A model generated the notes under the pieces. The model did not search any database. It saw only the letters and a list, made by a program, of their open reading frames with translations, and was not told where the DNA came from. The position numbers and the translations under genes were made by a program. Positions 1,174-50,465 of a DNA stretch of 64,000 nucleotides are shown one piece after another. How positions within the stretch are numbered: position 1 is the stretch's first letter; every line of letters starts with the position of its first letter. This DNA is from an uncultured Chloroflexia bacterium (GTDB taxonomy: Bacteria; Chloroflexota; Dehalococcoidia; GIF9; UBA5629): positions 11,896 through 75,895 of the forward strand of contig CAWAQY010000005.1 in NCBI GenBank assembly GCA_963784375.1, given 5' to 3'.

Positions 1174-1263
1174 AGCTTAATGATCCAAAAGGATTGATTT
1201 CTTGACCCAAAAGGTTCATAATGAATTTACATACAAAAAAATAAATCCTCACTTACTTCTTCA

Positions 1264-1566
1264 TTGGGAGTCCACATGAAGTGCGTTTTTATTTTAGCTA
1301 CACAACTGCAAATATGGGATGGCCTCATAACACAGGTTCTGGTAAATAATGGGATAGCGAACGAAGGTAATCCCTTAATTCGCTCTCTTGTTGAACAGGG
1401 TGGCTTCCTCACACTCAAAATTCTTGGCTCCTTCTTGTGCCTGGCAGCTCTTTGGATTCTCTCAAAGTACGCGCCAAAGTTTTCCTTTGTAGCGGCATCC
1501 AGTTTAGCTGCATTGTATATGGCTGTAATATCCTGGAATTTTTTTGTCGTTTTCAACGTTTCCTGA
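1264..1566 (+). CDS. Small polytopic membrane protein, DUF5658-like
   Basis: 100-aa ORF with three hydrophobic segments and a GIANEGNPLIR motif resembling the xNPL signature of DUF5658-type proteins. Assignment by eye only. Confidence 0.45.
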   Translation: MGVHMKCVFILATQLQIWDGLITQVLVNNGIANEGNPLIRSLVEQGGFLTLKILGSFLCLAALWILSKYAPKFSFVAASSLAALYMAVISWNFFVVFNVS

Positions 1567-1656
1567 CTATCACCACGAACTATTTTCTCTGTCTCCCTTC
1601 CTTTTATAGGCCATTGGTAATTTAAAATAGGTTCTTAATTACTCCATTTATTAACG

Positions 1657-3450
1657 TTAAGCCGTTGCCAATTCATTATGATTAAGGTTGCAACCATTAG
1701 TGAAATCCCTTGTATCCATCAGATTTACTACTAAATCAACCACCTGAGAATCATATTTTTGCCCTTTTCCCTTGCTCAGCTCCGATAATATTTCTTCTTT
1801 ACTGCGAGCTGGGCGATAGGGTCGATGAGAACTCATTGCCTCAACCACATCACAAACTCCAAGAATGCGAGCACCTAAACTGAGCTTGCCGCCTGCTATT
1901 CCATCAGGATAACCGGACCCATCTAAGCGCTCATGGTGGTGCAGGATAGTATCACACACATCTTCGGGTAAGGTCATACTCTGTAAGATTTCACAACCGC
2001 GTTTGACGTGTGATCGTATCAATACCCATTCTTCATCAGTCAATGGACCTGGTTTTGATAAAATCGTTCCCGGTATTGCAGCCTTCCCGACATCATGTAG
2101 CAGTCCACAAAAATAAAGCCACTCAAGTTTTTTATTATTTATTCCTAATTTTTCTCCGACCTTGCATACCATCACGGCAAGTCGCTGTTGATGGCTCGCT
2201 GTATAAGGATCAATGATAAAGAGGGCCTTAGATAGCGTCCTGGCAAGGGAAATAAAATGGTGCTTCAGCTGCCTGTTTGACTGTTCGCGTTCAATTTCCT
2301 GGGAAATCATATTCGCAGCAGTGGTCAACATGTTAATATGTGCTGTTTTCCATTTTTCCGAGTTTGTTGATTTTGTAAATCCAATAGTACCTACGGGCTT
2401 TCCTTCCACAAAAATGGGTATGGTAACGAAAGCAGAGTCGCTGCTGCCGGTATCCATTTCGATCTCTTCGTTTCCTTTAACATTTACCCGCTGCTTCTCT
2501 TTGTTATTTATTGAGCTTTCTCTTTTGTTGTAAGAGTTCAAATAGGTATCATTGTCATATATATATATACGAGGGGTTATTGTCGCTCCTTTTTCGTTTA
2601 TGCCGCTTTCACAACTCAAAGAACCCGCCATATCGGGAGAAGTACTTAACGGTGAATCGGCGATATTTAGTAGCACGAACCCATGCCTGCTGTCGGTAGC
2701 CTTCGATAATTCTTCTAATATCATCTTATATGGAATTTCCTCTGTCGTTTCAATAATAACCTGCCCTACTTTGGCAATCGTTTGCAGGTAATGTTCTTTT
2801 TCCTGTTGAGCCTTTTCTACCTCTTTTCGTTCGGTAATATCTCGAGCAATTCCTTGAAAACCCTCTCGTTGACCGTTTCGGTCTTTAATTGGTACAAAAC
2901 TGATTTCTATTGGCACAATATTGCCATTTTGCCTGAGGGCATCAATGAAAAAATGCTGCCCGGCAATGTCCTTGGTTTCGTTAAGCTGCTTATGAATAAA
3001 GGATCGGTATCCAGTCGACAGCACATCGCGTATGTTCATAGTCAGGATAGTATTCATATCGAAGCCGGTGAGAGCCTCAATCGACGTGCTGGCAAATGTG
3101 AAATACCCCTCATTGTCGATAGTAAAAATAGAATCTTGGCTGGTATCGATAATATGCTGCAATCGTTTCTCTGCCCGACTGGCTTTTTCCCGCTTCTCTA
3201 TTAATTCATTTTGTATCTTAATAATTTCACGGAAGCTGAAATGAACCAACCCTCCAATAATGAGCATGGCAAACATCCAATCGAACATGGTCTGCAGAAG
3301 AGTCAATTGCGAGTTGGAGTTCAAGAAAAAATAGCGAATAATTTGAAGTGAAGCAAGCGTCGCACCCGCCATTGCTATTATCAGCCATTCTAACTGTCTT
3401 GATTTGGTCTTCAAGTCTTTTTTTATGATGTCATTTTGCATTTTTATCAC
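1657..3450 (-). CDS. Membrane-anchored PAS-GAF-HD-GYP protein (putative c-di-GMP phosphodiesterase)
   Basis: 597 aa with two N-terminal TM helices, a PAS-like segment and a GAF-like segment. The C-terminal part carries canonical HD-GYP motifs: LLHDVGK and HHHERLDGSGYP. Confidence 0.85.
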   Translation of the reverse strand: MIKMQNDIIKKDLKTKSRQLEWLIIAMAGATLASLQIIRYFFLNSNSQLTLLQTMFDWMFAMLIIGGLVHFSFREIIKIQNELIEKREKASRAEKRLQHIIDTSQDSIFTIDNEGYFTFASTSIEALTGFDMNTILTMNIRDVLSTGYRSFIHKQLNETKDIAGQHFFIDALRQNGNIVPIEISFVPIKDRNGQREGFQGIARDITERKEVEKAQQEKEHYLQTIAKVGQVIIETTEEIPYKMILEELSKATDSRHGFVLLNIADSPLSTSPDMAGSLSCESGINEKGATITPRIYIYDNDTYLNSYNKRESSINNKEKQRVNVKGNEEIEMDTGSSDSAFVTIPIFVEGKPVGTIGFTKSTNSEKWKTAHINMLTTAANMISQEIEREQSNRQLKHHFISLARTLSKALFIIDPYTASHQQRLAVMVCKVGEKLGINNKKLEWLYFCGLLHDVGKAAIPGTILSKPGPLTDEEWVLIRSHVKRGCEILQSMTLPEDVCDTILHHHERLDGSGYPDGIAGGKLSLGARILGVCDVVEAMSSHRPYRPARSKEEILSELSKGKGQKYDSQVVDLVVNLMDTRDFTNGCNLNHNELATA

Positions 3451-3505
3451 CTCTTGTAATTTAATGTTTTTACTTGGATCAATAATCTGTTTCTCAAGAA
3501 TTTAC

Positions 3506-5152
3506 TTATTGTTGTGTCCACTCATTGGGTTCAGAATCATACCCCACAGCTGTATCGGAATTTGACTCCATGATTGCGGTTCCTGGATCTTCGTCTTCTA
3601 CACTTCCCGCTTTCGACAATGTACGGCCGAGCCAGAAAAACAAGAATGCAACCAATAATACGCCAAAACCTATTAATATATATTTTGTCCAGTCAGGCAT
3701 GTTTAGCATAACAGTATCAAAGGTATACCCTTTATAAAAGGAGCTTATTGAAGACCAGGGGCTCTCATTCGAAGCTCCATCAATGGCTTTTACTCTCCAA
3801 TAGTACGGGTCTTTCTGGCTGGGTAAAAGTTTGCTATCTTCAGGCATATCAAAACTATTTTGGACCAGATTTGCCGTAGAGAGCAGTATCTCCGAAAATT
3901 TGGAATCTTTGGCAATTTCAAGAACATAGATTACTCCACTTGGATCATTCACCGCAGACCATTCCAGATGTAACGCTTTTTCGATTCGGGCAGAACCTGC
4001 AGGAGTATTGAGCGTAGGAGCTGCCGGTGCAGCTGATTCAACTGTAAAAATTACCTTCTGCACATTTACTCCATCTGTTATCGTTATATTATGAGGGCCG
4101 GAACGGCTCTTTGGTATTTTTATGGTATGTGTAAAGGTACCCTGGGCGTTCACCGCTGGCGCTTCTAATTTGACATTATCATAACTGATGGTAATAGGAA
4201 ATCCAGGTCGAAAACCGGAGCCCTGAATGCCAACTGAAATGCCGATATTGCCATTATTTGGGCTGATGGCGATGGTAGAAAGAACACCAATTTCACAATA
4301 TGAACGGTTTGCGCCATCATCAACTTTTATTTTATGAGTGCCGTCAGAACATGGAGGAACCTTGAACTTTGCTACAAAGTTACCGGTGTTATCCACCCTC
4401 ACCGATGCGATATCTTTATCATCAAAATAAATTGTGTTGTCCTTGGGTGGAAAGCCTGTCCCTGTGAGAGTAATTTCGGAACCTACAGTGGTTGATGTTG
4501 GAGAAATAGTAAGTTTTTGTTTGATGTTGAAGACACTACTTATCAAATTTCCTTCGCTATCCTGTAGTTTTATTGTGTGATCACCCTTGGTTGCTGGCGG
4601 AACAACGAAAGGAACCTCTAATATTTTCCCATTAGAATCGGTATCAACTGCGGTTACTTTTACGTCATCTACTGAGATGTTTATCGATTTTTTTGCCGCA
4701 AAACCCGTTCCTGAAACGGAAACGACATCATTGACATAGCCATTATCTGTACTCAAAGTAATTTTCGGGATAACTCTGAAAGTAGCCATCTTTTTATTTG
4801 TTCCATCGTCAGCTATTACGTTATAACGCCCAGCTGCATACAGATCAACAACAAAACTGGTAATTGCATAACCGCCGCTATCAGTGATTTCCTTGGCAGC
4901 TATGACCGTCCCTGTGGTTATAGTAGTTCCCGGACCGAAAATTACAATTACCTGTTTACTGGGTGTGTAATCGTAAATCCTGACAAAAACGGTGGACCCG
5001 ACAGCGCCTTCAGCCGGCAAAACTTCCACTCTGGGGTTGGGATCCGCTGCCGTCACTGGCGCAACAATAATAAAAGACGCGAGCGCAAATGCAAAGCATA
5101 TCAGCATCCCCCAAAATAATCTGCTTTTACGAATAGGAATATTTCTTTTCAT
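3506..5152 (-). CDS. Type I membrane surface protein with four IPT/TIG-like repeats, an FN3-like domain and a C-terminal TM anchor
   Basis: Start chosen at ATG 5152, preceded by GGAGG. There is an N-terminal signal/TM segment (LFWGMLICFAFALASFIIVAPVTA). The module xxGxxVxVxGxGF...G.hxIxV recurs four times. An FN3-like segment (LEWSAVNDPSG...YYWRVKAIDGASNESPWS) is followed by a TM helix (YILIGFGVLLVAFLFFWL) and an acidic tail. Confidence 0.7.
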   Translation of the reverse strand: MKRNIPIRKSRLFWGMLICFAFALASFIIVAPVTAADPNPRVEVLPAEGAVGSTVFVRIYDYTPSKQVIVIFGPGTTITTGTVIAAKEITDSGGYAITSFVVDLYAAGRYNVIADDGTNKKMATFRVIPKITLSTDNGYVNDVVSVSGTGFAAKKSINISVDDVKVTAVDTDSNGKILEVPFVVPPATKGDHTIKLQDSEGNLISSVFNIKQKLTISPTSTTVGSEITLTGTGFPPKDNTIYFDDKDIASVRVDNTGNFVAKFKVPPCSDGTHKIKVDDGANRSYCEIGVLSTIAISPNNGNIGISVGIQGSGFRPGFPITISYDNVKLEAPAVNAQGTFTHTIKIPKSRSGPHNITITDGVNVQKVIFTVESAAPAAPTLNTPAGSARIEKALHLEWSAVNDPSGVIYVLEIAKDSKFSEILLSTANLVQNSFDMPEDSKLLPSQKDPYYWRVKAIDGASNESPWSSISSFYKGYTFDTVMLNMPDWTKYILIGFGVLLVAFLFFWLGRTLSKAGSVEDEDPGTAIMESNSDTAVGYDSEPNEWTQQ

Positions 5153-5153
5153 A

Positions 5154-5930
5154 TCATTGCCTCCGTGTCGTACCTGCTTTGTGTTTGGATAGAACCTGCG
5201 ATATTTCTTCACTGAGTTTACTCAATGTGCTCAGATCCACGTCCGTCATAAGCGATGCTAATCCAGTAGCTTCGGATTCTTCTAAATCCTCGTCCTCAAA
5301 AATATCCATTAAACTACCACCGCCTTTTTTCTCCTGCGCTTCCTCAGGGACTTCAGGTGACTTGGCTTCTGCAGTAGCTTCGGTACTTTCAGGTAGCTTA
5401 GCGTCTTCGGGGGTTTTTTCTCCCCCGGATTTGGTTTCAGCATTTTTGCCTGGATCAAACAAGAGAGAAGTGGCACCCCCGCTCGTGTTTTCTTCTGTTG
5501 CCGAACCACCCACAGCAGTAGACATATCCACTGTTTCTCCCGAAGAATACCCGGGCTGCTTGGAATTTTTCTCCTCTGGCTTATTTGAGGGGTCACCTGT
5601 TGACAGCGGTGAGGAATTTTCCAGCGGGCTATCTGTAGTTTCACCGGATTGCTGCTTGGTCACATCCTTATTGGCTGATTTTACAGAGGGCTTAATCAAT
5701 TGAGGCCGCACAGACTTTTCCGGTTGCCTGGCGGAAATTGGTTTTTGAGGTTTCCCCTTTTCTTGTAGAGCATTGTTGCTGGCCCTCGATACAATTTTTC
5801 TATTCTTTTTACTGGATTGCTTCTTTTTCCCCATGTGGCTGGCAATGAGCAGGATGACTGTAGTTACAAATATCCCGACAATTACTACCATAACCATATA
5901 TATATTTATTTCGTATCCAAGAATTTCCAT
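5154..5930 (-). CDS. Single-pass membrane protein with a long disordered K/P/E/S-rich acidic tail, function unknown
   Basis: 258-aa ORF with an N-terminal TM helix (MVMVVIVGIFVTTVILLIA) followed by low-complexity sequence. It starts 28 nt after the arlJ stop and the next gene starts 1 nt after its stop. Composition bias makes the frame less certain. Confidence 0.5.
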   Translation of the reverse strand: MEILGYEINIYMVMVVIVGIFVTTVILLIASHMGKKKQSSKKNRKIVSRASNNALQEKGKPQKPISARQPEKSVRPQLIKPSVKSANKDVTKQQSGETTDSPLENSSPLSTGDPSNKPEEKNSKQPGYSSGETVDMSTAVGGSATEENTSGGATSLLFDPGKNAETKSGGEKTPEDAKLPESTEATAEAKSPEVPEEAQEKKGGGSLMDIFEDEDLEESEATGLASLMTDVDLSTLSKLSEEISQVLSKHKAGTTRRQ

Positions 5931-5958
5931 TTAAATCCTCGTCAGCTTATCCATAAAC

Positions 5959-7509
5959 CTATGAAACAGTACTAAATATACCCTTTAATATGTCAGGAAC
6001 CACCAACAAACTACCGCCGGATATGGCCATCGTAAGACCAAAATAGAACAGGAACTTTAGATTATTACCACCTTCCACTACTTTGATGGAAGCAGCATTG
6101 ATTATCGTAAGCATTATTACCATAGCGATAACCATCATATTTAGTGTGTGGAGCTGGCTGCCGCTATCTGTAAAAAACTGGAATGTCGGCAGTTGAGAAA
6201 GCATGTCCATGCTTCCTTCGACATCTGCAGAATTCGCTGTTTTTAAGAGTGTGGCAAAATTCACCAGGACCTGGTATATGCCCACCAGCAATACGACTAA
6301 GGCACTATGTATGACAATACAGGTATACGAAAAAGTTGAAGCTACCATATTGCGCTTGGCTCGGAGCAGGGCAACTTTCATGGAGAACTTGGATGCCTGA
6401 ACTCCTACAATTTGAGGATCTCCACCCACCGCGATACCATCCCAAAAAATCTGAACACTCCGGTTTATATGTTCACTTCCGGTGTTGGCTATAAACCTTT
6501 GCCAGCACACATCAGGGCTGATACCGAGTTGTAATGTGCTATTCAAACCGATTGCTGCCTTTTTCAACGATGCCTGAGCTCCAAAGTCCATCCTTCCGAT
6601 CGCTTCAGTTACCGTGGTTCCTATCGCTTTGGTAACCCCGCCAAGGTTTCTGAGAAAGCCAGCCGCATCGGCATCAAATTTATCTATCATGCGGTCATCC
6701 CACACTGCGATGAATCCTGTAGGCAGCAATATGATAGACATTACTAACATTGCCCAGGCTAAATCAATCTTCGTTATCAAGATAATAAGTATCATCACAA
6801 TCACTGCCGGAATGACCACAAATTTGAATAGTAGTTTTGAGATTTTTTGACCCAAAGAAGTTGTCGCCATTGAATGTGTTTTAACCTCTTTAGGGGATGA
6901 CCGGTACAATATCCAGGCACCGAGTAATGTCGCCATCAGCATAAACCAGGTCAGGGCCACGATGAATATAGTTTTCATGGGGAAAATCAGCATCGATACC
7001 ACGCTGATAACAACTACCAGGGCTGCCGACAGGATAAGGGCTACGTAAGCATCAGTCCATTTCCTCATATTCTCTACCGAGCGCTCATACCCGTCCCCGT
7101 AAATTTCTCCACTTGCCTGAGCCTCTCGTGCCAGGAATTCGGTTTCCTTTTCCCCGGAAGCCAGAGCACCTGACATCCGCAGAAGTATGGATTTTGCCTC
7201 GTGTTCTTTGGTGCTTTCACCGATCATGCGGCAGGCTTCCGCATAATCGAAATTAAGTTTCTTGGCCAGGAAATGTACTTTTCGGAAGAACCGGGAGGAG
7301 GTATAGGGCAAACTTTGAGCGTACTCGAAGAGCAGGTTCCGTGCCAGGTCTGACGTTGCCAGAGCTGACATGTAAGTCAGATGACAGAATAAATCTGCGT
7401 TCAAAAAGTCATTGTTATTAGACAGTTTTGCGGGGGCCTCGGAATCCCGGTCAGCCTGTCTAGAAAAGATTTTCTTTTTGAGCTTTAGCAATAACATTGA
7501 GGAGGTCAT
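5959..7509 (-). CDS. arlJ: Archaellum polytopic membrane platform protein ArlJ/FlaJ (T2SS-F/TadC superfamily)
   Basis: 516 aa with multiple TM helices separated by two cytoplasmic helical domains. It is the last gene of the H-I-J triad, and its 5' end overlaps the arlI 3' end. Confidence 0.8.
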   Translation of the reverse strand: MTSSMLLLKLKKKIFSRQADRDSEAPAKLSNNNDFLNADLFCHLTYMSALATSDLARNLLFEYAQSLPYTSSRFFRKVHFLAKKLNFDYAEACRMIGESTKEHEAKSILLRMSGALASGEKETEFLAREAQASGEIYGDGYERSVENMRKWTDAYVALILSAALVVVISVVSMLIFPMKTIFIVALTWFMLMATLLGAWILYRSSPKEVKTHSMATTSLGQKISKLLFKFVVIPAVIVMILIILITKIDLAWAMLVMSIILLPTGFIAVWDDRMIDKFDADAAGFLRNLGGVTKAIGTTVTEAIGRMDFGAQASLKKAAIGLNSTLQLGISPDVCWQRFIANTGSEHINRSVQIFWDGIAVGGDPQIVGVQASKFSMKVALLRAKRNMVASTFSYTCIVIHSALVVLLVGIYQVLVNFATLLKTANSADVEGSMDMLSQLPTFQFFTDSGSQLHTLNMMVIAMVIMLTIINAASIKVVEGGNNLKFLFYFGLTMAISGGSLLVVPDILKGIFSTVS

Positions 7510-9080
7510 AAAAATTCTTCACTCCCTGTTTGTTCAATTTCTCAAGTATTTTTGCGCGACGTTCAAGCAACGTATAGATTTGTCGTACCTTATGGGGGGG
7601 GATACCCATTTTGGGAGCTATCTTGTATTCCAGGAGATAGCTGTTATTATCACCTGTAAATTCGAACTTGTCTGTTACTGAATCCCACCTGAACACATCC
7701 ACGAACAAAAACGACTGTTTAGCTGCATCATACCCCACTATTTCACTGATGCTGAGCATTCTTCGCCCCATCTGGCCACCGGGTACTTTAACGGCGCTCT
7801 GTATGATTACCAGGTTAAGGTTGTCGATGTATGTCTTGGGGACATTGATAGGGTCGCCGGTAAGACGTTGAATGAGCCTTTCTACGGTAGCCGCGTGGAA
7901 CGTTGCCATACATGAATGTCCAGTCTGCATTGCCTGGAAGGCTATCGCCCCCTCGGATCCCCTGATTTCACCGATTATTATTTCGTTCGGCCTCTGCCTC
8001 AGGGCAGCTTTTAGAAGGTCGAACATGGTTACTGCGCCTGCTTCGCTGTCTTTTGTCGACCGTATTGTTTCTCTTATCCAGTTCTTGTGGGGTACTTGAA
8101 GCTCAGGGGTATCTTCTATGGAAACTATCTTGGCATTTGTTGGAATAAAAACGGTCACGGCGTTCAGCGTGGTTGTTTTTCCCGAAGCGGTCTCACCACA
8201 GACAAAGGTATTCATCCCCTCCCCCAGCATAATAGAGAGATATGCCGCCATCTGATAATTCAATGTTCCCATATCTATAAGCTCAAGAATCGAGAGGGGT
8301 GTTTCGCTGAATTTACGAATGGTAAAGTTAGAACCGCGTTTGGACACATCCCGACCATAGACAATATTTATTCTGGAACCGTCAGGGAGAGTTGCATCTA
8401 CGATAGGGCTATGGACACTTACCGGTTTCTTGATCCGTTCCGCCAATCTCATCACAAATGAATCCAGGTCTTCATTATCAGGGAAAACTGACTGCCGATT
8501 TCAGACTTTTAAAGATTTTGTGTTCTATAAATACAGACCCCATACCGCTGCAACTGATATCTTCAACATATTTGTCAGTCACTATTCCTTCCAGCATACC
8601 CATACCCAGTTTGTCTCTGACCATCATATACTTCAGGCTGCGTAATTGAGCAGGAGTTACCACCAGCGGTTTAATCTTGGAACGGAATGGCAACTTGTTC
8701 AGGAAACTGGTTGGCCTGTCTGTAGTAGTGACTACCAGGTCAATATTTTGAAGAATCCGTTTTCTCCGCTCTTCATCTGAAGCAATTGCCTTCAAATTGA
8801 GAAGCTCCGATATGTCGAGCAATCTTTTCTCAATTTCTATCATGAGCTTGTCCAGGTCCTCCCCGACGATCGGTTCTATCGGGATGTAGGTATCCCGGCC
8901 ATCATTACCGTCGTGGAGGATGTGGGTGAAGATACCACCTTTTACCGGGTAAATCAGGTTTGGATGTTTGCCACTCTTCGCCATTGACCTGTCCAATTTT
9001 TTATGAAACTGGGGGATACCATGTTCTTTTACAGGGATCATATTCAAATACCGCAAAAGGTGAGGGTTCTTCTGAACCAC
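7460..9080 (-). CDS. arlI: Archaellum assembly/motor ATPase ArlI/FlaI, one gene split by a 1-nt frame break at ~8478
   Basis: Carries Walker A GETASGKTT, Walker B/Asp box IIIGEIRGSEG and LPDGSRINIVYG. ORFs 8478..9080 and 7460..8455 join as ...KSAVSFP-DNEDLDSFVMRLAERI... if one base in ttccc(t)gataat is ignored. Confidence 0.85.
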
Positions 9081-9201
9081 TTCCTGGGCTTCTTTGGAAA
9101 GCAGGCTCAGTATGTCACAGGAATCCCCCTTTTTATTTTTGTTTGTATCCGTTGGAAACGGGATAAATCATTTTTGGCACAATATGTTCCCTCTCAATTT
9201 C

Positions 9202-9933
9202 TCAGGCCTGGGCTCTGCCCATCGGCATGATTCGCATCCCTAAACCGGGATCAACATCGAAGCTCAATACGTTACCGGTACTTTTCGCAGCCCCTCTAAC
9301 TTTGGATACCTCAAGTACCTTGACCAGTTTATCTCCAACTTCCTCTATGCGGAGCCGGAAATGGGCATCACATGCAGAGCGCAGACGTATTAATATCTGC
9401 TCATCGAATGCATAGGTATGAGCAATATTTATCAGAGTTTTTCCGTCATCACATATTTTCTTGCAATCTTCAAAATAGCTTAGAATCTGATCCTTGGTAG
9501 TATGGGCAATGACCGGCGTCAAGGAATCAACAACTATCACATCATAGCTTGGGAATGCCCGGACTCCCGATACAATGGTAGCAAAGGTATTCATCTGATC
9601 CATCTTGGATGCTTCGATTGTGAATATTTTCATCCAGCCGAGCAGTAAAGCATCAGTAATACCCAAACCCAGGCTTTCCATCTGCTTGTTCATACTTTTT
9701 ACCGTATTCTCAGCAGTAAATAATAGGACCCTGTGGTGACAGGAAAGAGCCCCATGCATAATTTGCTGTGCCACTACCGATTTGCCTGCATCTGACTCGC
9801 CTTCAATAAGGGTAAGGGAACCGACGGGTATTCCACCACCCATCTGCTTGTCAATTTCTCGCTGTCCGGTGCAGATCAGTTCCGCATGCTGTACTTCATT
9901 TTCCCCTTCATCAGCTATAGAAACTTTCATCAC
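9202..9933 (-). CDS. arlH: KaiC/RecA-like ATP-binding protein ArlH/FlaH
   Basis: 243 aa with Walker A GESDAGKS and a RecA-like fold pattern. It lies immediately upstream of arlI. Confidence 0.8.
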   Translation of the reverse strand: MMKVSIADEGENEVQHAELICTGQREIDKQMGGGIPVGSLTLIEGESDAGKSVVAQQIMHGALSCHHRVLLFTAENTVKSMNKQMESLGLGITDALLLGWMKIFTIEASKMDQMNTFATIVSGVRAFPSYDVIVVDSLTPVIAHTTKDQILSYFEDCKKICDDGKTLINIAHTYAFDEQILIRLRSACDAHFRLRIEEVGDKLVKVLEVSKVRGAAKSTGNVLSFDVDPGLGMRIMPMGRAQA

Positions 9934-9960
9934 TATTACCTTTACTTTTGCATTCTATTT

Positions 9961-10461
9961 TTATGGCGGTCCAAACGTTGCTTCAGCGCAAACCCCATTG
10001 GTGGTAGATATAGTTGCCAGATTAATAGTCTTACTTGCTACCGCAGGCGATAGTTTCAAAACAAGCTTCATAGTTTCATTGGGATTGAATATATTCGGCC
10101 CGTAAACCTCGGGTAGCCCATTGATATACAGACCGCCAAGTGTCCAGCCCGGAGTAGCCGCAGAATATGGCAACCGCTGGACGATGCCGCTCTGATATTT
10201 CACGATTACATCCCATTTTTCAAAATGAGCCAGGTCAGTTTGCCCGGCATTTTTAATGATTATTTCCGCTTGTGTTCCCGGTGCATTCGTCGTCGAGCTT
10301 ACATAAGTGATACTTGTGTTTCTTATTTCTCCTGCCGATGATTCGTAGTCTTTCCAGGCATATGAAAGAGTATCAATCGAATTAAACGAATGCATGGCAA
10401 TCGTGGCTCCTCCCACAATCAAAACCGTAATACTTATTAAAGCGATAAACACATTTTCCAT
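9961..10461 (-). CDS. arlG: ArlG/FlaG-like protein (N-terminal hydrophobic helix plus beta-rich domain)
   Basis: Start chosen at ATG 10461 (MENVFIALISITVLIVGGATIAM). Size and position between the ArlF-like gene and arlH fit. The F versus G assignment rests on synteny only. Confidence 0.55.
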   Translation of the reverse strand: MENVFIALISITVLIVGGATIAMHSFNSIDTLSYAWKDYESSAGEIRNTSITYVSSTTNAPGTQAEIIIKNAGQTDLAHFEKWDVIVKYQSGIVQRLPYSAATPGWTLGGLYINGLPEVYGPNIFNPNETMKLVLKLSPAVASKTINLATISTTNGVCAEATFGPP

Positions 10462-10468
10462 AGTATTC

Positions 10469-10930
10469 TCAAGAAGAGCTGTATAATTTCCAGTCTGATA
10501 TCCCATTGGGTATCACTAATTTGAAAAAATAGGTCCCTGATGGTGCCGACAGAAGATAAATAGTAATTTTTGTGGTCGCGGTTGGCCCCCATTTGGTATC
10601 ATTCTCGATAACGTAGTCCCAGTAAGGTTTCGTAGAGCCACCATAAATTATTCGGGCGAAATTTCCTTCCGGTCCCCAAAATATGTCACTGTTTTGAATT
10701 CCACCTATATTTGAAGTACCAACATTCTTTACCCATGCATATATCTTGTCACTATCTTTGGCTATTTCAATAATCTTAATTTGGCTTCTTATCCTATCGT
10801 CAATTTTGCCGGCTGCGTCGGTAATGGCTCCACTGGTTCCTGTAATTGCTGGATATGCCGCATTCATGATCACTACCGAACAAACAACCCCGGCAATAAG
10901 GAGCAGAAGCGTAACAACTACTTTATCCAT
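10469..10930 (-). CDS. arlF: ArlF/FlaF-like protein (N-terminal hydrophobic helix plus beta-rich domain)
   Basis: 153 aa starting MDKVVVTLLLLIAGVVCSVVIM. The archaellin-like N-terminal helix, size and position fit. The F versus G assignment rests on synteny only. Confidence 0.55.
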   Translation of the reverse strand: MDKVVVTLLLLIAGVVCSVVIMNAAYPAITGTSGAITDAAGKIDDRIRSQIKIIEIAKDSDKIYAWVKNVGTSNIGGIQNSDIFWGPEGNFARIIYGGSTKPYWDYVIENDTKWGPTATTKITIYLLSAPSGTYFFKLVIPNGISDWKLYSSS

Positions 10931-11300
10931 TACGAGAATCCTTCATCATAGAAATAATTGACAGAAGTGCATTATCTTGCTGCTTCGAATCTGATAGTAG
11001 ATTATCCAACTGAGCTAAAATAGATAGGTAGTCGCTCGCGGCTATCGGTTGAGAATTGGTAGACTCCTGGATTGAGAGCCGTGCCATTTTTATTAAGGCA
11101 TCTCTAAGGCTTTGTGGGAGACGCCCCATAGTGAATGATATTTCCACGAGTACTTCTGTACGTTCTTTCCCGAGCTTGGTTATTGCCTGGTCCAACCACT
11201 GGGTGAGACCTGCTATAACGACAAGGTCAACCTGCCTGTTACCGCTGCCAGTTTCCTGGTCATTTTTCTTTTCGCTGTTGGATACTGCCGACCTGGGCAA
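10923..11300 (-). CDS. ArlD/E (FlaD/E)-like protein. The true 5' end is possibly at ATG 11433, with a frame break near 11375-11385.
   Basis: The segment DLVVIAGLTQWLDQAITKLGKERTEVLVEISFTMGRLPQSLRDALIKMARL resembles the conserved FlaD/E domain core (..WLeFL...vG...l..vL.yY...GWIs). An upstream frame, MKQSIHRIWAHYETELKR..., could join by a 1-nt shift. Confidence 0.45.
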   Translation of the reverse strand: MPRSAVSNSEKKNDQETGSGNRQVDLVVIAGLTQWLDQAITKLGKERTEVLVEISFTMGRLPQSLRDALIKMARLSIQESTNSQPIAASDYLSILAQLDNLLSDSKQQDNALLSIISMMKDSRNG

Positions 11301-11457
11301 AATCCCTTCAGAATGATCCTCCTGTTTGGATGTTTCAGTCCTTAGGCCATATTCCTGCCGAGTCGTTTCGCGAGGGCATTCTCTTTAGTTCTGTTTCATA
11401 ATGTGCCCATATTCGGTGAATCGATTGTTTCATTCTGAATTCTTGAGTTATGTGCAC

Positions 11458-11778
11458 TTATCTCCCTTTGGGATTGATGCGATGAATTGCTGGATTTCGA
11501 TCGCTCGCTGTATCTGTTTCACTATATACATTCTCCGTATCTACGGGAGCGCTGTCTTCATCCTCGGAATCATCAGTATCCTGCTGCTCTCCTTTTTGTT
11601 CTAGATGCATTGCCTGATTTATCCCACCGGCACTGGGTACCATATTTTGATTGAAAGGGTTTTGAATATTAAGGTACTGTTCTCGTAAATCCAGAAGAAC
11701 TGCCTTGATCTCATTTTTTAATATTTTCAGTTCATCTTCCAATACCGTAATTCTTTGCTCGTCCTTCATGGCACTCAC
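11458..11778 (-). CDS. Coiled-coil protein with acidic tail, in the position of ArlC/D/E N-terminal regions
   Basis: 106 aa with the heptad-like segment RITVLEDELKILKNEIKAVLLDLREQYL followed by a D/E-rich tail. It lies between the archaellin and the ArlD/E-like gene. Confidence 0.4.
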   Translation of the reverse strand: MSAMKDEQRITVLEDELKILKNEIKAVLLDLREQYLNIQNPFNQNMVPSAGGINQAMHLEQKGEQQDTDDSEDEDSAPVDTENVYSETDTASDRNPAIHRINPKGR

Positions 11779-11873
11779 CCTTTTACTGATGAAGGGTCAT
11801 TCGATTGAGACATGACCCTTCACGGTAAACCTATTTTAGAAAACCAGTTCTAAATATCGACCAATTTAGCGAA

Positions 11874-12488
11874 TTAATGGAGATCCATCGCTGGCTCTAA
11901 TGCTCCCGGTAATGATCTCATTATAGTGATTGTGGAACCCAAAGACGGCTTTATCTGAACACTGAATTTACCGTTGGCCTCTATTCCATTTACCAGTGCA
12001 GTACCTCCAAGGTCGGCCGTATTGATATTTATCTCGAATTGTTCGCCAGTTTCTAGCAAATTGTCGGAGTCAGCAGCGCCGATGGCAGTCTTGGTCCATT
12101 TAATATTGTTGAGATATTCTGCAGATGTACCAAGGCTGATCACGGTTTTATTGGTGGCGTTTGCCGTGCCATCACAAGGCGTCATATCGATCGGTTGCCC
12201 GGCAACAGCATTCTTTACCGTAATCAATATGTTAGATACTGTGACATTATCAGTCGACTTGGCAATGACTGAACCGGATACCTCAAGGTTGCTCTGAGCG
12301 GTTTTTAACCCGGCATAGATTGTTTCCTTGCCTCTCTCGGCGGAAAACAGCCCTGCGCTCAGCACCGCGTAGCCGAATACGGCAGCTACTGTGACGAAGG
12401 CGATAAGGATAATGGCGGTTTCCAGTCCGGTCATACCGCGGTCGTCCCTATGCAGATTCCTCATTGCTTTCATGAATTTCTTAAACAT
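11874..12488 (-). CDS. arlB: Archaellin (archaeal flagellin) with a class III signal peptide
   Basis: Start ATG 12488 is preceded by AAAGGAGG. The N-terminus MFKKFMKAMRNLHRDDRG/MTGLETAIILIAFVTVAAVFGYAVL is a canonical archaellin prepilin-like leader plus hydrophobic helix. The C-terminal region is beta-rich. Confidence 0.85.
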   Translation of the reverse strand: MFKKFMKAMRNLHRDDRGMTGLETAIILIAFVTVAAVFGYAVLSAGLFSAERGKETIYAGLKTAQSNLEVSGSVIAKSTDNVTVSNILITVKNAVAGQPIDMTPCDGTANATNKTVISLGTSAEYLNNIKWTKTAIGAADSDNLLETGEQFEININTADLGGTALVNGIEANGKFSVQIKPSLGSTITIMRSLPGALEPAMDLH

Positions 12489-12527
12489 TATTCCTCCTTT
12501 GGTCATATATATTCTCCACAAAATTTA

Positions 12528-12998
12528 TCAAAGTTTTACCAGTGTAAAATGGTGTTCGTCCTGGAACAGGATAGAGTGCCACAAATTGATAATTCGAATT
12601 GCTGCTATCAATTCATTACGCCCGATATCCCTCGATAAGAATGCAGAAGCACCATTTTCGATTGCAGGTACAAGAAAGCTTCTTTCATCATTCAAAACAA
12701 TTATGCCAACATGGTTTAAAGATTGGTTTATCTGGTTGACTACCTTGATACCCTCCGTCCCCCCCATTTCAGCATCTAGAATCACAATATCGGGATATAA
12801 TTTTTGTATTTGACTTAAAGCTTCTTTCGCATTTCGTGCTTCGCCGATGACTTTAATGTTGTCATCACCGCTTAACATCTGGCGTAAACCTTCCCGCATT
12901 GCCTCCCTGCTATCTACTAACACTACACGTATTACATCCTCATTACTGGCAATATAATTGTATACGTGAGATAATTCTTTTGTTTTAGTCCCTTCCAT
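12528..12998 (-). CDS. Stand-alone receiver (REC/CheY-like) protein with atypical active-site residues
   Basis: 156 aa. Alignment by eye to CheY gives VVLVDS (DD becomes DS), IVILDAEMGG (phospho-acceptor Asp present), IIVLND (Thr87 position is Asn) and AFLSRD (Lys109 position is Arg). It lies 39 nt upstream of arlB on the same strand. Confidence 0.75.
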   Translation of the reverse strand: MEGTKTKELSHVYNYIASNEDVIRVVLVDSREAMREGLRQMLSGDDNIKVIGEARNAKEALSQIQKLYPDIVILDAEMGGTEGIKVVNQINQSLNHVGIIVLNDERSFLVPAIENGASAFLSRDIGRNELIAAIRIINLWHSILFQDEHHFTLVKL

Positions 12999-13036
12999 AT
13001 ATCACTCCGTAAATTTAATTCTGGATGTATTTTGGC

Positions 13037-13059
13037 ACTTTTGTACCCCCTACAAAAGT
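13037..13059. promoter_or_regulatory. Perfect 9-bp inverted repeat (ACTTTTGTA-ccccc-TACAAAAGT) in the 220-bp gap upstream of the REC-arlB genes
   Basis: Read directly from the sequence. It lies between the NarL-type regulator stop (13218) and the REC start (12998). Its function (operator or hairpin) is unknown. Confidence 0.3.
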
Positions 13060-13217
13060 CCCAAAAGGGGTCAAAATAGTTACCATACCAGCTAATAGTT
13101 TTTTCGGCAATTGGTTAAACAAGGAATGAAATGGTCATGGATAAATGGAAGGAACTGAATGCTGATTTCGACTGATATGAGGGTGGACCGAACTTTATTA
13201 AATTAAGGATTGCTAAC

Positions 13218-13850
13218 TCAAAGTAAATTCTTGGTATAAGCTTCTGATACAGCCTGCGCTCTGTCCGTAGCTCCGAGCTTAGCAAATATGGTACTGGTTT
13301 CTCTCTTTATTGTCGCTTCACTGAGATATAGCTTCTTGGCAATTTCTTTATTGCTGATACCGCCAGCTATGAGACGTAGAATACTAAGTTGCCTTGAAGT
13401 CAAGACATTTTCCCGGTTGACAGCTGCCATCTTGGTAAATTGTTTTAAAAGAGAACTGGCGATCGAAGGTGCGAACGGAGATTGGCCTCCGCTGGCAAGC
13501 CTTATTGCTTTTGCCAGATCCTCTCTGCAAATGTCTTTAAGTAAATAACCTACAGCTCCAGCTTCGGCACATTGTCCTAAATATTTGTCATCATAAACAG
13601 TCAAAATGATTATATTTGCTGCACAACCCTGTGCCTTCAGTTGCCGAGTTGCTTCAATACCACTCATCCCGGACATCTTGACATCCATGAGTATCACATC
13701 CGGAGCAAGGTCTTTAGCCTTGACTATAGCTTCTTCACCTGATTTTGCTTCACCAACAACTGTTATGTCACTTTCTAACTCCAGCATTCGACGTATACCT
13801 TCCCGCACCAACGGTTGATCATCTACTAATAGCACTTCAATAGGTTTCAT
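13218..13850 (-). CDS. NarL/LuxR-family response regulator (REC plus HTH)
   Basis: MKPIEVLLVDDQPLVREG..DVILMDVKMSGMSG..IIILTVYDD..GAVGYLLKD shows canonical REC residues. The C-terminal part LTSRQLSILRLIAGGISNKEIAKKLYLSEATIKRETSTIFAKLG is a LuxR HTH. Confidence 0.85.
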   Translation of the reverse strand: MKPIEVLLVDDQPLVREGIRRMLELESDITVVGEAKSGEEAIVKAKDLAPDVILMDVKMSGMSGIEATRQLKAQGCAANIIILTVYDDKYLGQCAEAGAVGYLLKDICREDLAKAIRLASGGQSPFAPSIASSLLKQFTKMAAVNRENVLTSRQLSILRLIAGGISNKEIAKKLYLSEATIKRETSTIFAKLGATDRAQAVSEAYTKNLL

Positions 13851-13861
13851 AAAAATACCCC

Positions 13862-15570
13862 TTAGCAAGGATTTACCGGAACTTTATCAGGAAGCTTGAT
13901 TTCGGTTTCGTCATTGTTCACCGCAGAAGAAATAATAAGGCAAACCCTTGTTCCCTCACCAGGCGCAGTGGTTATTGTTAATTTTCCTCCGACCATTTCC
14001 GCTTTTTCGTTCATGCTTAAAAGGCCTATATGGCCTTCGAACGCTTTATATCTCATCGCCTGTTCCAGGTTAAACCCGCATCCGTTATCAATGATATCAA
14101 GTAAAATCGTAGTGGGTTCAAATACTAAATTGATACTAACCTTGGAAGCACTCGCATGTTTTCGAATATTATTAAGCGCTTCTAAACATATACGATAAAT
14201 AACTGTTTCCTGCATTGAAGACAAAGGTTTAGAATCCCCTTTGATCTCCAAGTCAATGAGAATTCCAGTTTCTTTACCCATTGATATTATATATTGCTGC
14301 AGTGCTCCAATCAACCCTATCTCTGCCAGAATTGTGGGGTGAAGATCAAGAATCAATCTGCGTAGCTCTTTTATGCTCTGGCCTAATATATTACCGGCAC
14401 GGCCTATCTCAATACTTGCTTCCTCTAACTTTTCCATAGAAACATAAGCATGACTTAATTGGATAAAATAGGAAGCACTGACCAACCATTGAGCCAGACC
14501 ATCATGTAATTCGGTAGATATTCTTCTCCTTTCATCTTCCTGGGCAGTGAGGCATCTTCTTAGAAATACTTCCCCATTATCTTTATGCGTTTTTATATCT
14601 TCAAATAGTTTGCCGTTTTCGATTGCAATCGCTGCCTGGCCTGCCAGAATGGTGAGTAGCTCAAGATCACTTTCTGTAAAAGGCAAACTTGAAGTTCCTT
14701 TGCTGCAATTGATAACGCCAATCACCTTTCCTTTTACAGATAAAGGGACGCATAGTATTGAAGAAACCACCGATCCATCATTTAATGCCGGATTGATCTC
14801 CCCTGGTTTTCTATCACGTAATATCGCTTTACCGGTCTTGATTACAGACCAGGTTGTATCTACATCTGATAGTCCTACTGCTTTACCGATCATAGCCTTC
14901 GATGAACCCAGTGCTGCTTTTATTATCAGTTCATTAGCCAACTCGTCCAGCAACATCAAAGAAACATTGTCAGATTTCGTTTCCATACCGACTATCCGGA
15001 CAAGTCGATTAAAGATTTTACTCGCATCCTGATCGGAGACAATGGAATTGTTCACCTCAAATAAAGGTAGCAATGTTTTGAATCGTACATTTTCCTTGGC
15101 TGAGCGATTCTTATTTAATATTTCCTTAACCACGGAAATAAGTTCTTCATTGTGGATCGGATCGGATAGTATCGCTTGAGCTCCCGCTCTGAATGATTTG
15201 ATAATGATGTCTATCGGGTCGTTTCTGCTGATAACTAACAAACCAATAGACGGATTTATAAGACGAATTCTTTGCAAAAAATCCGACCCACCTGTTTCGA
15301 GCATAGATAGACTGGTAATCAGGAGGTCTATCGGTTTTTTCCGTGCCATCGTTATGGCTTCAGCAACGGATTGAGAATGGAAAACCAAATAACCGCATCG
15401 GTGAGGGCAGAACTTATAGTGCAAATCATGGCTTGATCCCCATCAACTACCAGTATTTTTTCTTTTGATGAGTTTGCTATATCCAAGTTATCACTCCCAT
15501 GATAGCTTCCTAAAATAGATAATATTTCCTTTGCAGACCATATCTCAAATTTTTTGAAACTTCTTAACAC
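13862..15570 (-). CDS. Hybrid sensor kinase REC-GAF-HisKA_3-HATPase_c (NarL-partner type), frame break ~15350-15425
   Basis: Carries H-box ELHDGLAQ, N-box EALNNIRKHA, DNGCGF and GLLSMNEKAEMVGG. The N-terminal REC is split: KILVVDGDQ (ORF 15352..15570) continues in ORF 13862..15424 (..AITMARKKPIDLLITSLSMLETGG..). Confidence 0.75.
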
Positions 15571-15733
15571 AATATAGCGGTAGAGGGTAAAAATAACGAT
15601 AAATATACGGTAAATGGGAGGTAAATAATGCGTAAAATTCGGTTAACGCTACTTCATTGGTTCCACCCGGGTATTTTTTAATCGGTTAAAGATAGGTTAG
15701 TTGAATATAATTTGGTATAAGCTTTGGTTTTAG

Positions 15734-16285
15734 CTATTTTCGCTGAGGCCACCACCCCCACCAATTCTCGTGGTCGCATGTCGTACACCTGACTTTTACC
15801 GCTATCGTACCCATGGACCGGCAAGAATTACAGTTATAGGTCTTCCCAATATTATAGCCCGGTGTACTCCTCAGGCCTTCTGTAATAATCTCAACCTGAC
15901 TGCTTATGCTCCGTAATTGTTGAATGGTCGACTTCTGGGATTCTGAGGTTGATTGACCACTAAATCCAATGTTGTTTTCAAGATTAGTGATTCGTAGCTC
16001 CATCTTGGCTAATCGTAAGGACAATTCGGCCATTTGCATGCCGAGAGAATTAATTTGTCCTGCCGCAATACAATTTTCATGCTCATCTACGGATACGTTT
16101 CTGCGTTCAGTTAATTCTGGAGCTGGGCTTCTCATAGTCTCCGGCAGATTCCCAGACATAGATGGCCCAACATTTCCTGAATCGCAATGGCCGGATGATT
16201 TTGGTTGATTTGGTTTACATACCACTTTTCCCTCCAGGACGATTTTATCTTCCTGCGTCAGAATTTTATTCGCTTTGGCCATCAT
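15734..16285 (-). CDS. Hypothetical protein with a central coiled coil and a C-terminal CxxC...CxxC zinc-ribbon-like motif
   Basis: 183-aa ORF containing MQMAELSLRLAKMELRITNLENN and CNSCRSMGTIAVKVRCTTCDHENWWGWW. No family recognised. Confidence 0.45.
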   Translation of the reverse strand: MMAKANKILTQEDKIVLEGKVVCKPNQPKSSGHCDSGNVGPSMSGNLPETMRSPAPELTERRNVSVDEHENCIAAGQINSLGMQMAELSLRLAKMELRITNLENNIGFSGQSTSESQKSTIQQLRSISSQVEIITEGLRSTPGYNIGKTYNCNSCRSMGTIAVKVRCTTCDHENWWGWWPQRK

Positions 16286-16359
16286 TCTCTCCTTAATTCA
16301 CCTGAGCCAGGATATTGAATTCCTTTGATATTCTTTATCTTTTTGGTCTGATGCCACTC

Positions 16360-16944
16360 TCATACGGGTTCAGCCGCCATTTCAAATGATGCTTTGATTA
16401 GATTACTGCAGACCATCACAATAAATTTCGCAGTTGATGATTTCCCGTTCAATTGAAGTTGGGTGTCGATAGTAAAAACCGTATCGTGATTTGACTCTAT
16501 TCCCTCGCTGGCGATGCCCGTAATAGATTCTACCGAATCAACTATTATTACAGGCAGAGATGGCTTTAATCCCAGTCCGAGCGTGTCCATTACGGTAGTA
16601 ATAAAAGATTTCATAATCAAATTGCCTAACTCGCAAATAGCCGATTGCCTTACCTCCGAGAGGCTTTTTGACGGCACAATATCATCACCAAAAAGTGTTT
16701 CCAGCATCATACGGGCGATTTTAAGCTTGTAAGCTATCAAAATTCGTCCACCTGTCCCAACAGGTAACTTCTGATAGATTCCGACGGCCAAATCATCGTT
16801 ACCTCCCAGGAGATCAGTTATATGCTCGGAGGGAACCTGCCTGACTTGTATCGAATTGACTTCAATATCATAATGTATGAGTTTAGAGATATCTGCAATG
16901 GCAACCGTGAACCACTTTGTAAGAATTTGATTCCAATCCCTCAT
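16360..16944 (-). CDS. CheC/CheX-family CheY-P phosphatase-like protein (single active-site motif)
   Basis: SAICELGNLIMKSFITTVMDTLGLGLKPSLP matches the CheC signature [D/S]xxxExxNx22P exactly (counted by hand). Confidence 0.7.
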   Translation of the reverse strand: MRDWNQILTKWFTVAIADISKLIHYDIEVNSIQVRQVPSEHITDLLGGNDDLAVGIYQKLPVGTGGRILIAYKLKIARMMLETLFGDDIVPSKSLSEVRQSAICELGNLIMKSFITTVMDTLGLGLKPSLPVIIVDSVESITGIASEGIESNHDTVFTIDTQLQLNGKSSTAKFIVMVCSNLIKASFEMAAEPV

Positions 16945-17325
16945 TCCTTTTCAACCTGCAATAAAAAAATTAAGGCACACAATATGACAACTTAAATTGT
17001 CAATAGTGGTGTCAAATTACCAATTTACTCTTGCATATTCTCCAGCCAACCAGTACTTCATACAAGCACCCTAAGGCTAAACGTAATGAGCCTCATGTCT
17101 CAATGTGGTCTATCAACAATGAGACATAAAAAGAATGTCAGCCGGATAGGCAATGTGAAAAATTGGAGAGTTTCCTGAAATTACACGAGGAAGGTAAAAT
17201 TTCGGCTCAGACCAAACTCTGATCTTGAAGTAAAGAGGAACTGATTGGAGTGTCTAGGATTAAATCGAACAAGTTTGTAAATCTGCTCATACTTGTCATG
17301 GATGTCCTGCAAATAGTCTACTCGT

Positions 17326-17484
17326 TCAGCTTTTTGAGGACAAACCCCTATAGGCAGCCAGAGCAAATATTACTGCCAGGAAACCAAATGCGACCGCGGT
17401 ATATTGACTATTAGGTTCCAAAAAAGCACCGGCTATTGCGCCCCAAGCACAAGCTATCGCTGCGAAAATCCATAGTATGTTCAT
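17326..17484 (-). CDS. Small (52 aa) two-helix membrane protein, below the ORF-track cutoff
   Basis: Hand translation gives MNILWIFAAIACAWGAIAGAFLEPNSQYTAVAFGFLAVIFALAAYRGLSSKS, preceded by a GGGGGTAAGG Shine-Dalgarno-like sequence. Confidence 0.4.
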   Translation of the reverse strand: MNILWIFAAIACAWGAIAGAFLEPNSQYTAVAFGFLAVIFALAAYRGLSSKS

Positions 17485-17646
17485 ATTTTTCCTTACCCCC
17501 TAATTATTGCTTTAACGCTATTATCTCTTAATGTAATCAAGAGGTCAATAGTAGCTTCAGCAATACCAATCAACATACATATGTGATTGATGAGGATCCT
17601 AGTCATGGTGTCTTTTAGGGAAAGGGAAGTGGCAACGGTTTTTTCG

Positions 17647-25518: not shown

Positions 25519-25624
25519 TCTCCACCCCAAATCAAATTCATTTGCTACAAACCGGGCATGTTCATTATATACTATATCTTGGAGTATGCTATACTGAAAA
25601 AACGCCTCGCCGGGGGGAGTCAGG

Positions 25625-47120: not shown

Positions 47121-48160
<1,040 letters not shown>

Positions 48161-50433: not shown

Positions 50434-50465
50434 TGCAACTAAAACCCTCCTCTATTTTTCTCCAC

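Follow-up and report, generated by a model that had tools for sequence, protein, structure and literature searches.

Does a cluster of archaellum-like genes on a bacterial chromosome encode a genuine archaellum, and how does it relate to those already described? The question is raised by positions 5959-12521 of a 64,000-nucleotide stretch of contig CAWAQY010000005.1 from an uncultured Chloroflexia bacterium (the whole stretch is referred to here as the window). Judged from its sequence, this segment is a genuine archaellum (arl/fla) locus on a bacterial chromosome. We consider it likely, with a probability of roughly 0.8, that the locus is a further member of the published group of Chloroflexota archaellum loci with the arl2 gene order, and that the insertions and deletions (indels) interrupting two of its genes, arlI and a gene that we call X, are errors of assembly or sequencing.

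The archaellum genes

Open reading frame (ORF) listing, translation and profile searches revealed collinear archaellum genes on the minus strand of 5959-12521. Identities were assigned by hidden Markov model (HMM) searches with Pfam and NCBIfam and by sequence searches against the PDB. In the order of transcription the genes are:

11874..12488, minus strand: arlB, archaellin (204 aa from the ATG at 12488; ORF 11874-12521)
10923..11769, minus strand: X, the gene in the arlCDE/arlX position (broken into ORFs 11458-11778 and 10923-11300)
10469..10930, minus strand: arlG, stator component with an N-terminal membrane helix (153 aa)
9961..10461, minus strand: arlF, stator component (166 aa from Met16 of ORF 9961-10506)
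9202..9930, minus strand: arlH, KaiC/RecA-like ATP-binding regulator (Walker A motif GESDAGKS; ORF 9202-9933)
7460..9180, minus strand: arlI, motor and assembly ATPase (GTG start at 9180; corrected product 572 aa)
5959..7509, minus strand: arlJ, polytopic membrane platform (516 aa, ~7 hydrophobic segments by hydropathy)

The order arlB-X-arlG-arlF-arlH-arlI-arlJ is that of arl2 clusters, which are defined by G ahead of F, followed by H-I-J (PMC12488501): ArlG is encoded at 10930-10469, ArlF at 10461-9961, and H, I and J come next. An earlier note on this DNA had described a complete operon in the canonical euryarchaeal order B-(C/D/E)-F-G, with the two small proteins in the F-then-G positions. 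These two are in fact reversed (10469-10930 is ArlG and 9961-10461 is ArlF), and "complete" overstates the sequence as given, in which two genes are frameshifted. Of the full collinear set that it listed, ArlB, G, F, H, I and J were found, and the ArlD/E member has no profile support. The motifs it quoted (RG/MTGLETAIIL, GESDAGKS, GETASGKTT and IIIGEIRG) are all present in the translations.

For comparison we used seven other contigs. Scanning species-representative genomes with ArlJ yielded two relatives with 66-67% identity: L001, a 1.34-Mb contig of "uncultured Chloroflexia bacterium MFD04408.bin.2.19", and L002, a 70.7-kb contig of a "Chloroflexota bacterium" metagenome-assembled genome (MAG). 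Searches through the families of X and of a downstream TIG/Ig-repeat protein (see below) added L004 (122 kb; ENA ERZ27254254 k141_6629), L005, L006 (219 kb; GCA_964594975.1), a 42-kb contig from the Joint Genome Institute (JGI), and L007, an independent assembly (ENA ERZ25039602). By tblastn, L001 and L002 are syntenic with window positions 1657-16944, well past the arl genes, and all seven contigs have the same arrangement wherever they cover it. The order from a histidine kinase gene upstream of arlB to an HD-GYP gene downstream of arlJ is kept in the window, L001, L002, L004, L006 and the JGI contig, which begins inside the kinase gene; L005 and L007 are shortened and agree over the part covered, L007 extending from the arlI C-terminus onward. 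The sources named for members of the X and TIG families are Dehalococcoidia, Dehalococcoidales and Chloroflexi/Chloroflexota. The window comes from a Chloroflexota bacterium, its closest relatives being labelled Chloroflexota or Dehalococcoidia MAGs.

ArlB matched Pfam Arch_flagellin (PF01917; 6.2e-24, above the gathering score) and the archaellin N-terminal domain TIGR02537. Its class III leader ends ...HRDDRG/MTGLETAIILIAF, with cleavage predicted between RG and MTGLETA, and its best PDB match was the bacterial archaellin of Litorilinea aerophila (9i5h/9SIE/9SII; 2.8e-29), to which the alignment begins at the predicted mature end. These results bear out the proposal of an archaellin with a class III leader. 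The protein is 62-77% identical to orthologues in L001, L002 and L004-L006, and a strong Shine-Dalgarno sequence, AAGGAGG, lies ahead of its ATG.

ArlH scored 261.8 bits against NF004723 (FlaH), over the cutoff of 194, and its top PDB matches were the FlaH structures 4yds (6.9e-29) and 4wia (1.5e-20); its reading as a KaiC/RecA-like protein with the GESDAGKS motif therefore stands. ArlJ, whose reading as a polytopic platform protein probably holds too, matched NF004703 (ArlJ/FlaJ) over its full length at 1.2e-114, with a score under the curated cutoff. Three ArlJ/FlaJ equivalogs were the only NCBIfam families to match it, and Pfam T2SSF gave no match at E <= 0.1. It is 51-67% identical to its orthologues.

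The identities of the two small proteins come from more distant matches. ArlG found the FlaG soluble domain in the PDB (5tug/6pbk; 6.8e-11) and Arch_flagellin in Pfam (5e-5). The top PDB sequence match of ArlF was FlaF (4p94; E = 0.054); the protein is 100% identical to a recorded protein (P0253), and a homologue with 79% identity carries the JGI name FlaF. A low-confidence structure model of ArlF (pLDDT, the predicted score in the local distance difference test, 64) consists of an N-terminal helix and a beta-sandwich and matches archaellins, with FlaF at rank 10, which lends weak support to the FlaF identity.

arlI is spread over three frames (9180 to ~9160, 9080-8478 and 8455-7460); the CCC runs at 9160-9162 and 8481-8483 each contain one C too many. 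Removal of one C from each run gives a 572-aa product with no further stops that is collinear with its orthologues and 72% identical overall to that of L001; the true start gives MPKMIY..., compared with MPKLIL... in L001. Across the relatives the C-terminal domain is 77-84% identical, and that of the repaired protein shows 81-84% identity. Intact orthologues of 572 and 574 aa were aligned, and in every relative the gene is a single ORF of 571-611 aa. ORF 8478-9080 covers positions 2-186 of the FlaI model NF058587 (5.4e-36, 124 bits) and ORF 7460-8455 covers positions 197-520 (2.3e-155, 518 bits), each falling under the cutoff of 550 because the gene is split. In the PDB, the C-terminal part matched FlaI of Sulfolobus acidocaldarius (4ii7) at 2e-113, far ahead of GspE2 of Archaeoglobus fulgidus (2oap) at 2.7e-74, CpaF at 2e-37 and PilT at ~1e-11. 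By these comparisons the ATPase is far nearer to FlaI than to CpaF or PilB/PilT. The ArlI assigned earlier from GETASGKTT and IIIGEIRG is thus correct in identity and motifs, and incorrect as a single ORF. We also considered a programmed +1 frameshift, since one break lies at CCC UGA, a context like known shifty sites. We rejected it: the orthologues are all single-frame, the second arlI shift lacks such a context, and housekeeping genes are shifted too.

X had been described as two genes, one for a coiled-coil acidic protein and one for an ArlD/E-like protein. These are the two ends of one gene, a single ORF in the relatives (285 aa in L001, 257 in L002, 276 in the JGI contig, 303 in L004 and L005, 235 in L006); in the window it carries 3-4 single-base shifts at ~11335-11470, as traced by following the frame path against the closest relative (P0005). 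A conserved N-terminal coiled-coil motif, QRIxxLExExKxLKNEIxxVLLDxREQYLNxxNPF, is followed by a variable, acidic or Q/P-rich disordered linker and a conserved all-alpha C-terminal domain of ~100 aa, for which the AlphaFold model is a five-helix bundle (pLDDT 72). Of 218 homologues from a word-indexed search, none has a precomputed Pfam domain and two bear the JGI label "archaellum component FlaD/FlaE". The C-terminal domain, used in an exhaustive HMM search, brought up 451 representatives, of which 160 were at E <= 1e-10; all are built alike, of the N-terminal motif, a linker and the C-terminal domain, at lengths of ~200-440 aa. One distant member has an archaellin gene on one side and, on the other, two small genes whose products match window ArlG (39% identity) and ArlF (34%). 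From its position and conservation, X is an archaellum component. Its cytoplasmic, coiled-coil and acidic architecture, in which no hydrophobic segment was found, suggests that its role is most plausibly that of a cytoplasmic scaffold or switch, like ArlCDE and ArlX in archaea.

Frameshifts, synteny and alternative explanations

The interruptions of arlI and X have counterparts across the window. leuS (51363-53757) is in four collinear pieces, covering model positions 1-203, 205-362, 366-505 and ~520-809, that is, three breaks in 2.4 kb. polA (22794-25803), nuoD (44438-45543) and rsmD (47121-47677) are each in two pieces, and an ORF for a PKD-like lipoprotein is truncated at ~666. By frame arithmetic on ORF coordinates the shifts include both +1 and -1, and three of the insertions that could be pinned down add a C to a T-CCC context on the minus strand. 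L007 is 97.07% identical to window positions 95-8307, with only three indel differences; one of these is an extra C in the window's CCC run at ~666, truncating the ORF that continues in L007. The overlap does not reach the arlI frameshift at 8481-8483, ending ~175 bp before it.

Could the archaellum instead be decaying, with real frameshifts in arlI, X and the adjacent kinase gene, in a lineage that is losing motility? The lesions are locally dense, with five to six in the ~3.5 kb of X and arlI and another in the kinase gene, as opposed to just one indel that shifts the frame over the 8.2 kb shared with L007, so that they are unevenly spread. However, essential genes (leuS, polA, nuoD) are broken at similar or higher density, which would be incompatible with viability if real. 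In arlI each lesion adds a single base to a C run, as does the one indel open to comparison with L007, and apart from the shifts arlI and X remain conserved and collinear with their orthologues. We therefore read the frameshifts as a sign of an indel-rich assembly rather than of gene decay, because leuS, polA, nuoD, rsmD and the kinase gene are broken as well; single-base assembly or sequencing errors are the most likely cause of the interruptions in arlI and X, and decay is an unlikely one. Until the assembly has been polished, calls of split genes or pseudogenes anywhere in this window deserve distrust.

Two other readings, a mis-join of archaeal with bacterial DNA and an adhesion pilus, are less probable still. 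The archaellum genes are otherwise archaeal, a 702-bp non-coding gap (16945-17646) parts the conserved module from the housekeeping block, and within the 10-kb flanks examined the relatives are not syntenic beyond that gap. Yet the same arl genes with the same bacterial-type flanks (a NarL-type two-component system and HD-GYP) recur in seven contigs, including those of 1.34 Mb, 122 kb and 219 kb. The arl block is indistinguishable in composition from the rest of the window, with a tetranucleotide correlation of 0.909 (0.82-0.93 for other 6.5-kb segments) and a GC content of 0.43-0.46 throughout. The archaellin of known structure that matches best is bacterial, that of L. aerophila, and archaella in Chloroflexota have been published independently. 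An archaeal/bacterial mis-join is excluded because of the seven-contig synteny and the uniform composition, and we give an artefact of assembly or binning of this kind next to no weight; the junction at 16.9-17.6 kb, which lies outside the synteny, would join Chloroflexota DNA to Chloroflexota DNA. The other proposal, that the cluster builds a non-rotating adhesion pilus of the Tad or archaeal type rather than a swimming organelle, draws on the membership of ArlI, ArlJ and archaellins in the type IV filament superfamily and on the scores of ArlF, ArlG and ArlJ under curated equivalog cutoffs. The bacterial Tad/Flp pilus (CpaF/TadA, TadB/C) does share a distantly homologous ATPase and an ultimately archaeal origin with the archaellum. 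Unlike it, the window encodes archaellum-specific parts, namely an ArlH that passes its cutoff and proteins of the stator that resemble FlaG and FlaF. The filament protein is an archaellin instead of a Flp pilin, the ATPase is FlaI-like, and the platform protein matches only ArlJ models. In the published ArlIJ tree, moreover, loci of Dehalococcoidia and Anaerolineae fall in the archaellum clade, and one member of it swims. A pilus is thus very improbable. In keeping with this, the best profile matches were to the ArlH, ArlF/G, ArlI, ArlJ and archaellin families, those of ArlF, ArlG and ArlJ under the curated cutoffs, and did not place the cluster with Tad or type IV pili.

Besides the local density of lesions, several observations weigh against our interpretation of the locus as one more Chloroflexota arl2 archaellum. 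The correct families are the best matches of ArlG and ArlF, and neither passes a curated threshold: ArlG reached 1.5e-6 with the NCBIfam ArlG model, under its 110-bit cutoff, and ArlF reached 1.4e-5 with the ArlF model, also under the cutoff. ArlJ scored 383.6 bits against an equivalog cutoff of 570. The ArlD/E identity proposed for X found no backing in PF04659, NCBIfam, or PDB sequence and fold searches. PF04659 matched none of 33 X-family members at E <= 1 nor any of 10 distant ones, a set of 43 that reaches down to relatives at 5e-11 and in which NCBIfam matched nothing either; the X fragments and their intact orthologues matched nothing in Pfam or NCBIfam; a PDB profile search with X and a Foldseek search with its C-terminal domain model were both without a match. 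None of the profile or fold searches run linked X to FlaD/E, FlaC or ArlX. A crude hydropathy survey found no candidate class III signal peptidase in the 64-kb window; it agrees with the earlier note that no prepilin peptidase is present, no multi-pass membrane ORF resembling one. Finally, filament and swimming function have been demonstrated only in a different Chloroflexota class (Caldilineales).

The core of the first proposal, an archaeal-type cluster on a bacterial chromosome, nevertheless holds: the ATPase is FlaI-like, ArlH passes its cutoff, ArlG and ArlF can be recognized, and the DNA is syntenic with seven Chloroflexota contigs and uniform in composition. Bacteria-specific genes had been placed on both sides of the cluster, and those we could verify with NCBIfam (der, plsY, gpsA, lspA, a rluD-like gene, mutM, clpB/C, a bacterial-type gltX, polA, a bacterial-type leuS and nuoD) lie only on the high-coordinate side, from 17.6 kb onward. 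A scan for promoters and terminators over 5-17.7 kb gave counts equal to chance expectation, and Rfam and tRNA scans of the window detected nothing.

Two further segments deserve mention. At 58699-63925 (minus strand), short ORFs that resemble one another follow in a row; they have lipoprotein-like leaders (LLLLILIPGCFTF...), and "NPSAINPGGTSTLLWNVTGANSVSIDQGIG" domains recur in them. They probably represent several paralogous surface proteins whose genes have been broken up by indels of the same kind. At 50185-51266 (minus strand), a pair of ORFs separates an intact 489-aa ORF from leuS; GC skew is strongly negative here, GC content dips to 0.41-0.42 at 49-52 kb, and the segment may be a small inserted element.

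Relation to known archaella and proposed function

Archaellum genes were reported earlier in SAR202 and in Chloroflexota metagenomes. A survey of 3,780 Chloroflexota genomes found 243 positive, with 244 complete clusters (Sivabalasarma et al., Nat Microbiol 2025, PMC12488501). The norm described there is the arl2 order, which sets these loci apart from those of Haloferax and Pyrococcus, with PibD/PilD outside the locus in all cases and genes in the arlCDE position, typical according to a MacSyFinder statement. The window agrees: arlB, the arlCDE-position gene, G, F, H, I and J form one locus, the signal peptidase would be encoded outside it, and no flagellar genes are nearby (the window was not exhaustively HMM-scanned for flagellar or type IV pilus genes). 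Dehalococcoidia-type hosts are explicitly covered in the same work. Completeness and an ArlD/E-like gene, which had been singled out as noteworthy, are therefore already typical of ~243 Chloroflexota genomes. The window copy differs in being frameshifted in arlI and in the arlCDE-position gene. It also differs from the L. aerophila locus in its flanks, which there are PilN and PilO-LysM and here are a two-component system, a receiver, and acidic, TIG and HD-GYP proteins.

With archaeal arl2 loci (Archaeoglobus fulgidus, Sulfolobus acidocaldarius, Nitrososphaera gargensis) the window shares the order G-F-H-I-J, and its ArlI, ArlH and ArlG find their best structures in S. acidocaldarius FlaI (4ii7), FlaH (4yds) and FlaG (5tug). 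Unlike them, it has a bacterial host and bacterial translation signals (the AAGGAGG before arlB), and the protein encoded between arlB and arlG matches neither Pfam FlaD/E nor the membrane-anchored architecture of ArlX. The canonical euryarchaeal arl1 clusters of Methanococcus, Haloferax and Pyrococcus have the same filament, motor ATPase, platform, KaiC-like regulator and stator pair; the window departs from them in its reversed F/G order and in the lack of a recognizable ArlC or ArlD/E domain (PF04659, 43 X-family members).

By homology with archaea and with the L. aerophila system, for which a 2.7-A filament structure is available and swimming has been demonstrated (PMC12488501), we infer the following mechanism. 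A class III signal peptidase, its gene lying elsewhere in the genome, would cleave the pre-archaellin ArlB behind RG. A hexamer of ArlI on the ArlJ membrane platform would use ATP first for filament assembly and then for rotation, with the KaiC-like ArlH modulating ArlI and with ArlG and ArlF forming an envelope-anchored stator. X, with its coiled coil, acidic linker and helical domain, would probably form a cytoplasmic scaffold or signal-input layer. The locus itself probably goes back to an ancient transfer from methanogen-related Euryarchaeota, followed by inheritance within the phylum; the published analysis describes a single transfer, out of Methanotecta-related Euryarchaeota and into the ancestor of Dehalococcoidia and Anaerolineae (PMC12488501).

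Conserved bacterial genes around the arl block

Wherever the seven contigs extend, the arl genes are embedded in bacterial genes that are kept in position. In the window these are:

13862..15486, minus strand: hybrid histidine kinase, REC-GAF-HisKA_3-HATPase by Pfam (upstream)
13218..13850, minus strand: NarL/LuxR-type response regulator, REC + GerE (upstream; Pfam Response_reg 1.7e-28, GerE 2e-15)
12528..12998, minus strand: stand-alone receiver, 156 aa (directly upstream of arlB; Pfam Response_reg 4.5e-20)
5154..5930, minus strand: membrane-anchored acidic disordered protein, 258 aa (directly after arlJ; no family match in Pfam or NCBIfam)
3506..5152, minus strand: TIG/Ig-repeat membrane protein, ~548 aa (weak Ig-like Pfam matches)
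1657..3441, minus strand: PAS-GAF-HD-GYP (HD_5) signalling protein (Pfam HD_5 6.1e-36, with PAS and GAF)
1264-1566, plus strand: DUF5658 gene on the opposite strand (downstream end of the module)

Upstream of arlB, the kinase gene is frameshifted near 15389-15399 (its pieces span 13862-15570), and its orthologues in L004 and L006 are 533-545 aa long. The NarL-type regulator has orthologues in the same position with 58-73% identity. The stand-alone receiver also keeps its position, in L001 (4417-4887), L002 (4485-4952), L004 (8024-8488), L006 (8678-9166), L005 and the JGI contig. Compared with CheY its active site is degenerate (DD to DS/ES, Thr to N/S, Lys to R/G), and the phospho-acceptor Asp is Gly in L001; its C-terminal tail, LWxSILFQDExHFTLVKL, is strongly conserved. 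From this pattern of residues, the receiver may be a phosphorylation-independent adaptor.

In this clade arlJ is always followed by the acidic protein, the TIG protein, the PAS-(GAF)-HD-GYP protein and DUF5658. A ~200-258-aa protein stands directly after arlJ in all relatives, its position being kept and its sequence only weakly (29-33% identity). The TIG protein has an N-terminal signal sequence and a C-terminal membrane anchor, is ~550-590 aa long across the clade, and occupies the same position in seven other contigs. Many of its 412 homologues carry PF01833 TIG domains, and the named ones all come from Dehalococcoidia/Chloroflexi. The HD-GYP protein is in the same position in all relatives, with 40-60% identity. 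The copy number of arlB varies between one and two across the contigs that bear the module.

Further upstream in the window, 16360-16944 (minus strand, upstream of the kinase gene) is a CheC-like gene (NF041093 2.6e-17, under the cutoff; Pfam CheX 0.0019), and 15734-16285 (minus strand) encodes a coiled-coil protein with a Cys-rich, zinc-ribbon-like C-terminus that is conserved in L001, L002 and L004. In L004, positions 1-2492 hold genes for a methyl-accepting chemotaxis protein, cheY, cheB, cheR and two extra HD-GYP genes directly upstream of the kinase-regulator-receiver-arl module, so that a chemosensory cluster is physically linked to the archaellum locus there. Coupling to F1 chemosensory systems is the subject of a 2026 preprint.

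The published survey reports that CheF is absent from Chloroflexota, and it names two open questions, namely the substitute for CheF and the anchoring of the stator in a bacterial envelope (PMC12488501); its main text contains neither "HD-GYP" nor "c-di-GMP" nor "response regulator". We tentatively propose, at somewhat worse than even odds, that in this Dehalococcoidia-like clade the arl genes and their fixed set of bacterial genes form one functional unit that adapts an archaeal motor to a bacterial cell. The receiver and X could replace the missing CheF/ArlCDE signal input, the NarL-type two-component system and the HD-GYP protein could place the archaellum under bacterial transcriptional and cyclic di-GMP (c-di-GMP) control, and the acidic and TIG-repeat proteins could provide an envelope anchor, as the S-layer does for ArlF/G in archaea. 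This conserved shell of bacterial genes is possibly a new point, not found described in the literature examined. As an archaellum locus, the window adds one example to a phylum in which the transfer, the arl2 layout, the completeness and the function are already published. Its neighbourhood suggests the hypothesis that the receiver, X, the acidic protein, the TIG protein and the HD-GYP protein are candidates for the replacement of CheF and for the anchoring of the stator.

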